A stretch of 61,521 nucleotides of DNA, the filler included, from Candidatus Babelota bacterium (GTDB lineage: Bacteria; JAGOBX01): NCBI GenBank assembly GCA_017999075.1. It is 14 parts of 14 records of this genome, joined end to end, with 100 filler letters (N's around TTAATTAATTAA, not from the genome) between each part and the next. Parts side by side here need not be neighbours in the genome. Positions count along the whole stretch, not along the records: positions 47,709 to 51,095 come from JAGOBX010000459.1; 13 more parts are not named here. The stretch is one strand, 5' to 3'. Under the pieces are notes generated by a model that worked only from the letters and a program-made list of their open reading frames with translations, was not told the origin of the DNA and did not search any database. Position 1 is the first letter of the stretch; the number at the start of each line of letters is the position of its first letter. The position numbers and the translations under genes are program-made. Shown in pieces: positions 46,650 to 51,284 of the stretch.

Positions 46650-47608
46650 CTAATTATTCAGTAAAAGTATTTCTACCCTGCGGTTCAATTTTCTTCCTTC
46701 GGATGTCGAATTATCTGCTACAGGTTTGGTGTCAGCCCATCCTATTACATTCAATCTTTTTTCAGATATTTTTCCTTTGGAAATAAAATAATCTATTACT
46801 GCAACTGCGCGGGCAGTAGACAACTCCCAGTTTGAAGAATACTTTGAATTTGACTTAAACGGAATATTATCTGTATGTCCTTCAACCTGAACTCTTCTAT
46901 CAGGATAATTATTTAATATTTCTATAACTTTATTCAGAGCTTCTTTTGAAGCATCTTTCAGCTCGGCCTGTCCTGCGCTAAATAAAACTTTATCTGAAAA
47001 AGTAATTTGAAGCTCTCCCTTATCAGTTTCTTTTACATTAACCTGTTTTTGTTCAACAAGTTTTGACAATTCATTTTTTATATTTTTATTGTCTTCCGCA
47101 AGTTTTTCAAGTTCTTCTTTACTTTTTGTCTGGAGTTTTTCAAGTTCTTCTTTAGATTTTGATTTAATCTGTTCAAGTTCAGTTTTCAAATTTTTATTAA
47201 TTTCTGATAAATTGCTTATTTCAAGTTCCTTTTGTTTCAAATTTGCCGTAATTTCTTCATTCTGAACTGGAACAGCAGCCGGCGCTTCTTTACCCGCAGC
47301 ATTAACCATACTTTTTACAGTAGCATTTAATTCCTCTACTTGTTTATTTAAATTATTATTTGCCGCCTGCAATTCTTCAACCTGTTTTTTATATTGATTT
47401 GCTGTATCATTCAGTTTTTGTAGTTCAGAATTATTTTTAGATTCAGCATCTGTTTTAGAAAGGGATTTCGCCTCACTTTTTTGGTCAATACTTGACTTTA
47501 CTGAATTTAATTCATCTGTAAGTTTTTGAATTTGATTTTTAAGGTCATTATTGGATTTACTTAAATTTTCTATCTGCTTTTTATACTCTTCTTCATTTTT
47601 CCTGGTTT
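46650..47608 (-). CDS. MotB/OmpA-like peptidoglycan-binding protein with long coiled coil (5' truncated)
   Basis: VEGHTDN, NWELSTARA, NRRVEI; frame open to the contig edge. Confidence 0.88.
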
Positions 47609-47708
47609 NNNNNNNNNNNNNNNNNNNNNNNNNNNNNNNNNNNNNNNNNNNNTTAATTAATTAANNNNNNNNNNNNNNNNNNNNNNNNNNNNNNNNNNNN
47701 NNNNNNNN

Positions 47709-47861
47709 TCCTTAAGAAACAGCTGAAAGGCTGATTTCCGCATAATAGGGTTTCGCTATACCGTTATTATAAATCCGCCGCGAAGATCCGCGTGAGGTTC
47801 CTTAAGGCAGTTATCGTAAAAGATAACAGGCCCGCATAACAGGGTTGCCGGATTTTCGCGG
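47709..47861 (+). ncRNA. Candidate IS110 bridge RNA (two internal-loop modules; 5' part truncated)
   Basis: TCCTTAAG-hairpin-CCGCATAA(T/C)AGGGTT occurs twice, 90 nt apart. The second copy is closed by a 13-bp stem CCGCGAAGATCCG/CGGATTTTCGCGG whose G-U pair favours the + strand. Confidence 0.65.
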
Positions 47862-48069
47862 TTTTCAATTATTAAGTATTGTTTCGGATTTTAAAATTCA
47901 TTGTTTCTTTTTGGCCGACCAAAAAGAAACAAAAAGTCGCTTACTTTTTTATTGAAAAAAGTAAGATAAAAACAAGGGGTTGTTTGCTTTATGAAAACCA
48001 TTTTTTATAAAAATTGGTTTTCATGCTTTCCAAAAAAATTTTTTAATATTTTTTACAGGAGGCATTGAA

Positions 48070-49431
48070 ATGATAAATGAAACATTAAAAAAAACCGAGG
48101 CGGAAAAATTTGTTATCGGAATTGATCCAGGCGATACTGAACATAAGGCTGTACTTGTATCGCCTGCTCGCATTTCATTATGCAAACCTTTCTCAATAAA
48201 GGTAAATGCGGAAGGATTTGAAACATTTTCAAAATGGCTTGATCAGATGAGGAAGGAACATAAAATAAATCAGGATGACCTGATATTAGCAATAGAATCA
48301 TCCTGCAATTTATGGCAGACTTTTGAATTTTATTTCAAAGAAAAAGGATATAAAATTGTTAAAGTCAGTCCTCTGACGACCTATCTTTCAAGAGGATTAA
48401 AAAACAGCAATTTATCAAAATCAGACAACAAGGATTGCCTTCTCGTGGCAGAATCAGTATTGAATGGTAAATTCACGGAATGTTACGAAATCGGCAAAAT
48501 TTATGAAAGACTAATAACGTTGAATATAGCGTTAAATAAATTACAGGATACCTGCGTGCAGGCAAAACTGCGTGTTCGTGGAATACTACATAAAATATTT
48601 CCGGAGTTTCTGAACATCCTTGACCTTAATACTGCCACCGCTGGTTTTTTATTGAAAAAATATATTTTTCCTGTTGATTACTTGAAAATAAAAGATTCTG
48701 AAATCACTGAACTGGGCGAGGTTTTAAAAAAATTATCTCAATCACAGCACAATTCTGAAACAATTCATAAACTTAAAAATGCCGCAAAAAAATCAATAGG
48801 CATCAGAAAAGAATATATTGAAGAAGCTGAACGTATATTGTTCAAAAGTTTTTTTGATGTTTATGAAAATTTAAGCCGCGAGGTTCTGATTGTCGGCGAA
48901 AAAATAATTCAAACTGCATATGAATGCAGGGAATTCCATATCCTTGTTTCAGTTAAAGGAATCTCGGAAATATCAGCAGCGCAGATAACAGCTGAAGTTG
49001 GAGGATTCTTAAGATATTCTCATTATAAACAGATTGAAAAACATGCGGGATTGAATCTGAGAATAAATCAGTCTTCTAAAACTGCAAACGCAAGGCACAT
49101 AAATAAAATCGGAAACAAGCGACTCTCAAAAGTTTTATATCAGACAGCGCGGCACGTAACAAATTATGTTCCGGAGGTAAGGATAAAATATGTTAACAGA
49201 AAACAGAAACATAAAGCTTACAAGAAAAATATTATAGCTTGTATTTCACCGCTTCTGCGCTTGCTGTTTTCGCTGGTTAAAAATGATAAACCTTATCAAC
49301 TCGATGAAAACGCTTACAAAGAGCTTTGTGCAATCGAAACAAAATACAATATTAAAAATAAAACCATAGATCATTATACTCCTAAAGAAAAAAGCAGATT
49401 CACAAAAAGGCATTTACTGAAAAAAATATAA
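48070..49431 (+). CDS. IS110-family recombinase/transposase
   Basis: RuvC-like DEDD (IGID, AIES, KSDNKD), IFPEF linker, C-terminal VKGIS..AAQITAEVG..AGLN..NQSS..INKIGNKRL; RBS AGGAGG. Confidence 0.93.
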   Translation: MINETLKKTEAEKFVIGIDPGDTEHKAVLVSPARISLCKPFSIKVNAEGFETFSKWLDQMRKEHKINQDDLILAIESSCNLWQTFEFYFKEKGYKIVKVSPLTTYLSRGLKNSNLSKSDNKDCLLVAESVLNGKFTECYEIGKIYERLITLNIALNKLQDTCVQAKLRVRGILHKIFPEFLNILDLNTATAGFLLKKYIFPVDYLKIKDSEITELGEVLKKLSQSQHNSETIHKLKNAAKKSIGIRKEYIEEAERILFKSFFDVYENLSREVLIVGEKIIQTAYECREFHILVSVKGISEISAAQITAEVGGFLRYSHYKQIEKHAGLNLRINQSSKTANARHINKIGNKRLSKVLYQTARHVTNYVPEVRIKYVNRKQKHKAYKKNIIACISPLLRLLFSLVKNDKPYQLDENAYKELCAIETKYNIKNKTIDHYTPKEKSRFTKRHLLKKI

Positions 49432-49920
49432 TTTTAAATTGGAGTTCTGGATTATGTGAAATTTTATATTTTAAATTTTTTACAAAATTCAGCGATTCGA
49501 TTGTTTTATTTCTTTGGCAGATAAAATAATCCACTTTACTGTTTGAAAATTTTGATTGCCTATTATTAACATGGCGCTGTAAGAGGCGGAAACGCGCTCC
49601 GTATAACCGCATAAAATAAAGTGTTACCTTTTTTACCGGGTCGGATAAAAAAATTCTTCAATTATTGGCTGATTAACTTCGAGCCGTACGCCGCTGCAAA
49701 TATAAGCGGCATTATAAATTAAAGTGAGGATGGATATACCGGTAGGAATAAACTAGGGGAACCACGCAGGCAAAAAAAATGACTAAAGCCGTACTGGTTA
49801 TCGCTGTATTCATAAGGGCATATCTATGCTTTCATAGATGATTTTTTTTATGGTTTGATTTTTTTTTACTTCTGTTTTTTTTAATACTGGAATTTTTTTC
49901 TTGACAAAACGGGGGGAGAT

Positions 49921-50013
49921 AGGAGCTATCCTCGTTTTGCCGAAGGCAAAATGACGCGAAGCGCCGAGCCCGTAGGGCTCGAGGGATAGCTCCAAGATAG
50001 TCGCTGTCAGAGG
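49921..50013 (-). other. attC-like folded site downstream of the nuclease gene (R' side replaced by the IS end)
   Basis: Stem GGAGCTATCC(C)TCG/CGAGGATAGCTCC with one extrahelical base; three sub-hairpins with GAA, GAA and GTA triloops on the + strand; R''-like GACTATC. Confidence 0.7.
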
Positions 50014-50948
50014 TAATCAGGAATCATCATTAATTTACCAAAACGTTCGTTTTCTTTTTCTGAATGATTCCTTAAAGTTAACTGAGAGATACATACGATA
50101 AATTCTTTAAGTTTGTCAAAAGCTTCGTCTGTATAAATATCCCCATGTACATGAATACCGTTCAATATTGCCATTATCCATTTAATATAGCATCGAGGTA
50201 TTAATAAATCTGAAATATCATTCCAGCCAGTTATATTGCCTCGCTCCTTATAAGCTAATCTTTCTAATGATTTATCGCATTCACCCTTACAAGCCCAATA
50301 AATACTGTGAATGGTTTTTTTGCCATCTTCGTTATTTCTACTTTGCTCCATAGCAATAATACCGGAATAATTTTTATCAAGCAATTCTTTTCCACAAACA
50401 TCACATAATAGAGGCGAATAATCAGAAAGTAAATCTGTTTTAGTATCTTTTGGAGCACATATTTGCTTATAGCTTTCTGGAAAAAATCTTTGAATGAGAT
50501 TGATGCCTTCTCCGCAATTAAGAAGTTCCCTTTCAATTCTTTCATTATCAAGTATGGCAATTTCTAAATTATTATTTTCTTGAATTCCTTTAAGGCGTCT
50601 TGATAATGGAGAGCTTATTACAGTAGAATAAAATCCAATAAAACCATTACACTTATGGGCGTTAATTCGATCAACAATATTCTGCTCATCTGCTTCGCTA
50701 ACAGAAGCTCCGCTGTGAATTCGATGTTTGCAGCTTATCAACCATCGCTTTTCGGAACTTGTCAACGTACCTTTTTGTTTTTCTACTGCAATAATATCTC
50801 GCCCACCATCCTGTCCTCTATCCGGTCCTTCTTTGACCTTGAAATGTAATATAATTTCAATAAACTCTCTACAAAATAATTCAAAACTATCTTGTTTTCC
50901 ATCAGCTTTATTAGCCATTGGAATTTCTTTGAAATTTAGTGCTCCCAT
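50007..50948 (-). CDS. Mrr-like PD-(D/E)XK endonuclease with C-terminal zinc-binding domain (cassette gene)
   Basis: FELFCREF..GQDGGRDII..WLISCKH; CDVC..WACKGEC; RBS GAGGAG and no room for a promoter. Confidence 0.78.
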   Translation of the reverse strand: MGALNFKEIPMANKADGKQDSFELFCREFIEIILHFKVKEGPDRGQDGGRDIIAVEKQKGTLTSSEKRWLISCKHRIHSGASVSEADEQNIVDRINAHKCNGFIGFYSTVISSPLSRRLKGIQENNNLEIAILDNERIERELLNCGEGINLIQRFFPESYKQICAPKDTKTDLLSDYSPLLCDVCGKELLDKNYSGIIAMEQSRNNEDGKKTIHSIYWACKGECDKSLERLAYKERGNITGWNDISDLLIPRCYIKWIMAILNGIHVHGDIYTDEAFDKLKEFIVCISQLTLRNHSEKENERFGKLMMIPDYL

Positions 50949-50970
50949 TTTTTCTCCTCTGATGGCGACT

Positions 50971-51055
50971 ATCGGACAGTGCTTTTACTCGGCGCGAAGC
51001 GCTGACCGCAAAGCGGCCGAGCCCGCAGGGCTCGAGGTAAAAGCAAAAGTTAGAT
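50971..51055 (-). other. attC-like site upstream of the nuclease gene
   Basis: Minus strand ATCTAAC-TTT-TGCTTTTAC(C)TCG..CGAGTAAAAGCA-CT-GTCCGAT. Three sub-hairpins (GAA, AAA, GCA loops on +). Shares GAGCCC-G(T/C)A-GGGCTC with the 49921 site. Confidence 0.75.
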
Positions 51056-51208
51056 GTCGTACTCTATCCTTTATTGCAATGCAACTGCTTTTTCCNNNNN
51101 NNNNNNNNNNNNNNNNNNNNNNNNNNNNNNNNNNNNNNNTTAATTAATTAANNNNNNNNNNNNNNNNNNNNNNNNNNNNNNNNNNNNNNNNNNNNCATTT
51201 ATACATAT

Positions 51209-51284
51209 GGGGCTGTGGCGCAGCTGGGAGCGCGCTTGAATGGCATTCAAGAGGCCGAGGGTTCGACTCCCTTCAGCTCCACCA
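51209..51284 (+). tRNA. tRNA-Ala(GGC)
   Basis: GGGGCTG/CAGCTCC acceptor with G3:U70, anticodon arm CTTGA-ATGGCAT-TCAAG, encoded CCA. Confidence 0.97.

Follow-up and report, generated by a model that had tools for sequence, protein, structure and literature searches.

The long right arm of a two-armed IS110-family element is probably the ancestral site of a predicted guide RNA

Analysis of a 61,521-nt stretch of DNA from a Candidatus Babelota bacterium (the window) showed that its IS110-family element carries four loop modules at two ends, two of them in an enlarged left arm upstream of the transposase gene and two in a long right arm downstream of it. The right arm consists of 488 non-coding bases between the transposase stop codon (49431) and the right end of the element (49919). 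We consider it probable that this right arm is the integral, ancestral arm for a structured guide RNA (predicted), with its second module as the donor loop. What is unusual in this sublineage is the enlarged left arm, with its two paralogues of right-arm module 1.

The element, its gene, and its surroundings

The window is a set of concatenated draft contigs, chained by N-linkers (47610-47708 and 51097-51195) that bear the six-frame stop word TTAATTAATTAA, and genes across linkers are therefore not physically linked. The contig that contains the element extends from 47709 to about 51096 (3.4 kb). Because it begins within the left arm, the first ~246 bp of the element, including the left terminus, are absent from the window. 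A complete, independent copy (L002) was found in a metagenome scan; window positions 47710 to 49918 match it at 93.6% over 2,210 bases, and the DNA past both of its ends is unrelated to that in the window. Another copy, L003, is 99% identical to L002 and has a different left flank. The element common to L002 and L003 begins at L002 position 172, which fixes the left end, and the left arm in the window aligns to L002 418 to 774. The complete element is about 2.45 kb long, with a left arm of 603 bp (in L002), the open reading frame (ORF), and a right arm of about 490 bp. Both long arms occur together in L002, so the two-armed layout described in the initial annotation recurs in an independent copy.

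A 2,801-nt contig from public run X5 covers L002 175 to 2625 with one difference and then enters a palindromic repeat of the kind found at window 50966 to 51046, providing a third right junction. Comparison of the three right junctions places the right end at 49919, one base short of the 49920 given initially; similarity to L002 alone ends at 49918. The element is a discrete unit: its flanks differ in the window, L002, L003, and the X5 contig, and its ends are conserved across relatives. The features referred to below are as follows.

47709-48069, + strand: left arm, cut by the contig start (603 bp in L002)
47709-47765, + strand: left-arm module A, partial; its 5′ basal strand precedes the contig start
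47776-47863, + strand: left-arm module B, with a 12-bp basal stem, an internal loop, a distal hairpin, and CCGCATAAC on the 3′ side
48070-49431, + strand: IS110-family DEDD transposase gene, 453 aa, identified by Pfam
49432-49560, + strand: right-arm proximal spacer, poorly conserved (86.9% identity to L002)
49567-49626, + strand: right-arm module 1, aligned by position with relatives (the "third copy" of the initial annotation)
49634-49744, + strand: right-arm module 2, putative donor-binding loop, basal stem TACCGG/CCGGTA
49745-49850, + strand: conserved 3′ block with the second AGCCGTAC unit, within the 94.8%-conserved core
49851-49919, + strand: T-rich right terminus with a conserved subterminal CTTGACA (49900-49906)
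49920-49994, no strand assigned: flanking DNA, likely target; forms a long imperfect palindrome, with a second repeat of this type at about 50966-51046

The transposase matches Pfam DEDD_Tnp_IS110 (PF01548; E 8.5e-14, 52.1 bits) and Transposase_20 (PF02371; E 4.2e-15, 56.3 bits), both above cut-off, and has the DEDD/RuvC-like N-terminal domain and PF02371 C-terminal domain of the IS110 family. A protein search found 175 relatives, of about 429 to 500 aa; two are close (94% and 87% identity), one is 46% identical, and the others are 34 to 40% identical. When species-representative genomes were scanned with a profile, 66 loci were recovered, most of them from MAGs with the labels Ignavibacteriota, Bacteroidota, Nitrospirota, Calditrichota, and Neomarinimicrobiota. 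Scans of genome contigs for close relatives returned one distant locus at first and then none.

One rearranged copy and one possible further one were also seen. In L007, a further copy, the left arm is broken at 1952 to 2877 by another insertion sequence with a DDE_Tnp_1 transposase, and the point of interruption is equivalent to window position 47945. In run X6, one high-depth contig joins L002 position 364, which lies in the left arm before the loop modules, to position 2087 at the ORF end. The joint may represent a deletion derivative with the whole right arm or an artefact; its shorter side has only 20 letters, and it was not counted.

The palindromic repeats are likely to be the target of the element. 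The two palindromes in the window have a 19-mer in common (at 49966 and 51019), where 0 are expected, and they bracket a 313-aa ORF (50007-50948, − strand) with no Pfam match. The element adjoins one palindrome, and the X5 copy adjoins the other kind. The layout recalls cassette-array or REP-like repeats, by analogy. Short contigs from runs X1 and X2 match the right flank of L002 (2623-2662) without the element, after unrelated DNA that ends in CTATC, so the L002 right flank is itself a dispersed repeat; a clean empty site for L002 was not obtained from these contigs. In several distant relatives (L129/L130 and L133/L136), TAACC is found 6 to 9 bases past the right terminus CAAGTAG. TAACC is also the word that opens every left end, which points to either a conserved word in the target or an extended crossover region. 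On the neighbouring contigs, a probable tRNA gene lies at the start of the next one (51209-51284), where a tRNA-like acceptor and T-arm were recognised (Rfam tmRNA gives 36.9 bits, below the gathering score), and a 240-aa ORF at 46650-47372 on the − strand combines a C-terminal domain of the OmpA family with an N-terminal half that is repetitive and resembles a coiled coil.

The right arm and its two loop modules

The measured length of 488 bases agrees with the roughly 490 bp of non-coding DNA first noticed after the ORF stop, and all of the motifs named there are where they were said to be. The third scaffold copy (49580-49607) has TAAG at 49580-49583, a GCG stem, GAAA loop, and CGC stem at 49586-49595, and CCGTATAAC at 49599-49607, with ATGGCGCTG before it and CG after it; it is a paralogue of both left-arm loops. 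The AGCCGTAC word occurs at 49682 and 49787 and is followed by ATTATAA at 49711 and by ATTCATAA at 49808, respectively. The composite pattern TAAG-N8-30-CCGYATAA had four matches in the 61.5-kb window compared to 0.44 expected, a count reached by 1 of 100 shuffles, and three of the four lie inside the element on the + strand (47713, 47803, and 49580). The 9-mer CCGYATAAC by itself is weak, with two matches compared to 0.43 expected (2 were reached by 6 of 100 shuffles). A DNA-pattern scan of genome contigs for the module 1 motif picked up 120 stretches, none of them beside a transposase relative, and these were discarded as chance matches.

Further comparison with L002 showed that the arm is not uniformly conserved. 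The core (49561-49850) is 94.8% identical, compared to 89.4% for third positions of the ORF and to 86.9% and 83.8% for the outer portions of the arm. About one-third of the core differences are packed into ~10 bases at about 49604 to 49613 (L002 about 2309-2318), which is the 3′ loop strand of module 1. The window letters at this place make CCGCATAA, a word that is also present in left-arm modules A and B. The change could be guide reprogramming or gene conversion between modules, judging from the letters. Contigs of run X1 aligned to L002 lose their match at 2311 and continue with window-type letters.

Several other features of the arm were examined. A promoter-like site at 49543-49572 has 9 of 12 matches, and its spacer is one base longer in L002. 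A hairpin at 49822-49839, unchanged in L002, is followed by a run of eight T's (49842-49849); read by eye, the two together appear terminator-like. Because its stem contains just two G-C pairs, this hairpin was not called by the terminator scan. The arm contains a single ORF (70 aa, − strand, 49400-49612), which was rejected as a gene because two 1-base indels break its L002 version. Single-sequence folding of the arm gave z values of −2.55 for the + strand and −2.07 for the − strand, which do not discriminate between the strands, and an Rfam search of the whole element at E≤1 returned no family except PhrS at 15.7 bits, which is at chance level. The subterminal CTTGACA is also present in L004, L001, L133, and L136. 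A repeat search found no terminal inverted pair in the window, which is without the left terminus; by eye, the left end resembles the complemented right end only in part. A sigma-70 promoter at a circular junction was rejected, since the right-end TTGACA and left-end TATAAT would be >20 nt apart in the circle by our own count.

The right arm is a property of the whole family. Relatives on about 50 genome contigs have right arms that align block by block and are collinear with the studied arm by position. Pairwise comparison of multi-copy relatives gave right arms of about 420 to 630 bp, and none of the arms other than the right one is long in these distant relatives.

In an alignment of 22 module 1 sequences, 94.3% of cells are paired compared to 77.9% in column shuffles, two-sided changes are found in 12 of 16 pairs, and the covariation score was reached by 0 of 500 shuffles. 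When the register was slid, pairing was only 34 to 49%. The frequent G-U pairs are compatible with the transposase (+) strand only. A covariance model built from the 22 relatives matched 48 relatives, 26 of them outside the model, with one match per relative, in every case on the + strand and past the stop codon. In 40 relatives with an intact ORF, module 1 lies 36 to 216 nt past the stop; it is present in 40 of 40 when an intact ORF and 240 nt or more of downstream sequence are required.

In the window, module 1 has a distal stem-loop (49583-49599), a 3′ loop strand that begins with CGTATAAC, and a basal stem, TAACA/TGTTA, whose duplex is AT-rich and weak (−4.0 kcal/mol compared to the family mean of −16.8). 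MAFFT lines it up, by position, with module 1 of the 22 relatives. The initial annotation had envisaged a model of the left loops scanned over the right arm; the scan was run in the reverse sense, with the family right-arm model over the element, and gave a weak, partial match to the L002 motif (9.2 bits) and none to that of the window, whose right arm had no match at E≤10 (69 kb) or E≤1 (282 kb). The family nhmmer profile did not match the right arm of the window either. Because profile searches miss this arm, distant homology rests on a bridging relative (L004), on collinearity, and on short shared blocks. L004, whose transposase is 47% identical in aa sequence, has module 1 at the same offset, ~150 nt past the stop, with the stem altered on both sides (GCG/CGC to ATGA/TCAT), and a profile made from the arms of distant relatives detects the right arm of L004 (E 1.7e-4). 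The bases of module 1 that precede TAAC were also compared with left flanks as a candidate guide for the left target, and cognate pairs matched no better than non-cognate ones (1,083 and 4,024 of 10,000 permutations).

Module 2 has ATAAAAAA in its 5′ loop strand (49645-49652) and GTGAGGAT in its 3′ loop strand (49724-49731). Its distal hairpin (49690-49710), with shoulders, is within the first AGCCGTAC...ATTATAA unit; the second AGCCGTAC unit belongs to the conserved block past the module. RNAalifold gave only four inner pairs for module 2, as bulges shift the register, and a duplex-energy permutation test was used instead. Cognate basal duplexes were more stable than non-cognate ones for both modules (−16.8 versus −10.5 kcal/mol for module 1 and −14.1 versus −7.4 kcal/mol for module 2), and 0 of 10,000 permutations were as low in either case. 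The basal duplex of module 2 in the window, at −10.6 kcal/mol, ranks 2 of 17 partners, with a sequence unlike that of its relatives.

Module 2 is most likely the donor-binding loop, as judged by its relation to the two ends of the element. The left-terminus consensus in relatives is TAACGAT-Y-TCTAT, and in 28 of 28 relatives base X of the module 2 5′ loop (AGA-N-X-ATT) is Watson-Crick complementary to left-terminus base 8, although this covariation has only three states (X/Y T/A at 3 loci, C/G at 5, and A/T at 20) and hence represents few independent events. It would agree with a short helix between the module 2 loop and top-strand bases 5 to 9 of the left terminus. The left terminus of this element is TAACGTTTTCTAT. 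In L002, the loop ATAGAAAA, at the homologous place, complements the left-end TTTTCTAT at 8 of 8 positions. The loop in the window is one base off that of L002, its complementarity being judged on the L002/L003 left terminus. In L004, the pairing holds at only 2 of 5 positions in a hand alignment. The 3′ loop strand resembles, by eye, the right terminus in the same sense, with AAGTAAG compared to CAAGTAG in most relatives, and L001 has A for T in both places. In this element, GTGAGGAT compares by eye with the right end GGGAGGA plus T.

These observations can be joined into one proposed mechanism. The right arm would specify a structured RNA on the transposase strand throughout this family of ~440-aa DEDD elements. 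The RNA would consist of two tandem internal-loop modules, in each of which a basal stem leads to a two-sided loop and then to a distal hairpin that varies in length, in a bridge/seek RNA layout downstream of the gene as in IS1111-type elements. Once produced, it would be bound by the transposase and guide recombination, with module 2 pairing with the donor (the left terminus of the element) and module 1, the other loop of the family, as the presumed target binder. In this sublineage, the basal stem of module 1 would have decayed, with its well-stemmed paralogues A and B in the enlarged left arm. Two characteristics of bridge RNAs and seekRNAs are present: the family has stem-closed loops backed by covariation, of which the window keeps the module 2 stem, and a loop strand is complementary to the donor termini (one base covaries with left-terminus base 8 in the 28 of 28 relatives, and all eight positions match in L002).

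The left arm and the alternative explanations

Modules A and B were found in L002, L003, the window, and L004, with basal stems of 11 to 12 bp. Module A, seen whole in L002 (397-473), has an 11-bp basal stem round an internal loop and a distal hairpin; the letters of the hairpin differ between the window and L002, and the pairing is kept. Both modules agree with right-arm module 1 in the shoulders of the stem and in the ...CG-NN-TAAC... sequence of the 3′ loop strand. Left arms with such modules are not typical of the family. In 33 relatives with a locatable left-end motif, the left arm has a median length of 110 bp (range, 88 to 243 bp), compared to 285 bp in L004, and no module 1-like match was found in the left arm of the other relatives. 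L004 module B (474-556) is the sole match to the family model in the sublineage (19.5 bits; E 0.034 at 69 kb and 0.14 at 282 kb). The complement of the module A 5′ loop (from L002) matches the right flank in the window at 9 of 11 positions, a post hoc comparison.

This distribution bears on two proposals of the initial annotation. The right arm had been seen there as the extra one; however, module 1 follows the stop codon in 48 relatives whereas left arms are short, so that view is not sustained. The suggestion that the arm carries additional loops was correct in that loop-type RNA modules are present, but the right arm is the ancestral one and the extras are the left loops. It appears from the sequences that the left arm acquired its loops as copies of the target-type loop of the right arm, where the closing stem has been lost. 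Whether the sublineage has in this way become a natural bipartite multi-loop guide system, with the donor loop on the right and duplicated target-type loops A and B on the left, is a more tentative matter; we regard it as possible but on the whole doubtful.

The right arm could be homologous to that of the relatives but retired in this element, with guiding moved to A and B and the arm kept for the terminus, termination, or regulation. The failure of the family model to match module 1 in the window and the weakness of its basal stem would be expected from retirement, as would the 11- to 12-bp stems of the left modules and the fact that the best match to the family model in the sublineage is L004 module B rather than a right-arm module. 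However, the central right arm is conserved above synonymous sites, the basal stem of module 2 is kept by means of a different sequence, L002 retains an 8-base complement to its left terminus, and the module 1 stem-loop with its flanks has persisted between this element and L004 at 47% aa identity. We therefore consider retirement unlikely. Much less likely still is a small RNA resembling Ssr9 of ISPpu9, either regulatory or hitch-hiking, which would modulate transposase expression through complementarity with a left-arm RNA and be dispensable for transposition. ISPpu9 is a known case of such a module in the IS110 family, going by the portions available of the source, and module 1 does resemble A and B in the same sense, like a decoy for an antisense RNA. 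But Ssr9 accompanies only some copies, whereas all 40 of the relatives whose right side is complete have the arm, as do L002, L004, and the X5 contig; moreover, the arm has a two-loop architecture with terminus covariation, and no internal second set of ends was seen in it.

A nested origin, also raised initially, in which the arm would be left over from another IS110 at the same hotspot, is hardly tenable, and the same holds for a mis-assembly. These alternatives draw on the left-loop-like motif within the arm and on the short contig being cut at a repeat. However, the same arm is collinear in L002, the 2,801-nt X5 contig, and L004, and blockwise in the distant relatives; there is one set of termini, with neither a transposase remnant nor an internal repeat of the element ends seen; the core exceeds synonymous sites in identity to L002 (94.8% versus 89.4%); and the 70-aa ORF, the only one in the arm, is broken in L002. 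An integral, ancestral right arm for a predicted guide RNA remains the reading that we favor.

Relation to known systems and implications

The cited papers are used here for the portions of them that were available. According to Durrant 2024 (PMC11208160), the bridge RNA of the IS110 group is placed at the left end and that of the IS1111 group at the right end, and the RNA is inferred to have moved between ends during evolution. Siddiquee 2024 (PMC11187229), covering >350 ISfinder entries, gives long non-coding regions as downstream in 186, upstream in 123, double in 26, and absent in 17. Thus, the premise that one long non-coding end is usual agrees with both papers, but the 26 two-region entries qualify it. 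ISHvo10 and ISAcp5 are named as double in Siddiquee 2024, the available portion of which says nothing on what the second region holds or does; in the literature searched, they are named only in that paper and its preprint. These entries are like the present element in that both ends are long. The phrase "split bridge RNA" was found together with IS110 in one preprint, as far as its available text goes.

The element combines features of both groups. As in the IS1111 group, a long non-coding region with a structured RNA (predicted here) lies downstream of a DEDD transposase, and, as in IS1111 seekRNAs, the loop strand that pairs with the top strand is 5′ of the same-sense strand, an order that Siddiquee 2024 (PMC11187229) gives for matches to the target. 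The same paper separates IS1111-type transposases (330 to 350 aa) from a subgroup of 395 to 455 aa that includes IS110. The 453-aa protein found here falls within the latter range and is set apart by its length from the IS1111 group. The long left arm with loop modules is a further difference from that group, which has subterminal inverted repeats of 7 to 17 bp. Like the IS110 group and IS621, the element carries, ahead of the gene, two modules in which a basal stem closes an internal loop. Unlike in the IS110 group, where the right end is short in the sources available, the right end here is both long and conserved and has a structure; the two loops on the left closely duplicate one another and a right-arm loop instead of forming a distinct target/donor pair; no junction promoter is apparent; and the left ends of relatives are short. 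The family as a whole is large and mostly uncultured, and it would join an IS110-like big transposase with an IS1111-like downstream two-loop RNA (predicted).

Two smaller RNAs offer partial parallels, again from the portions of their sources available. ISPpu9 also has an RNA gene (only predicted in our element) behind the transposase, with a sequence related to the upstream region, but Ssr9 is optional, separately mobile, and regulatory, whereas the arm here is family-universal with guide-like covariation. In CazIS110-1 (bioRxiv 10.1101/2025.10.25.684509), a TBL-only RNA, which is a single-loop RNA that functions alongside a full bridge RNA, provides a precedent for additional guides with one loop; it is, however, a truncated product of one locus and not an extra loop copy at the opposite end.

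RNA-guided IS110 recombinases are under development for genome writing, and their natural diversity bounds what can be engineered. If the left loops are used, this sublineage would provide natural split or multiplexed guide loops and direct evidence of a guide RNA moving between element ends. If the bipartite reading is true, the "bridge" would be built from RNAs of opposite ends and more than one target could be read, and the element would be a living intermediate of the right-to-left bridge RNA translocation that Durrant et al. inferred, as given in the available part of that paper. If the left loops are unused, the element would still be a clean case of which arm is ancestral, with a testable pairing between the donor loop and the terminus.
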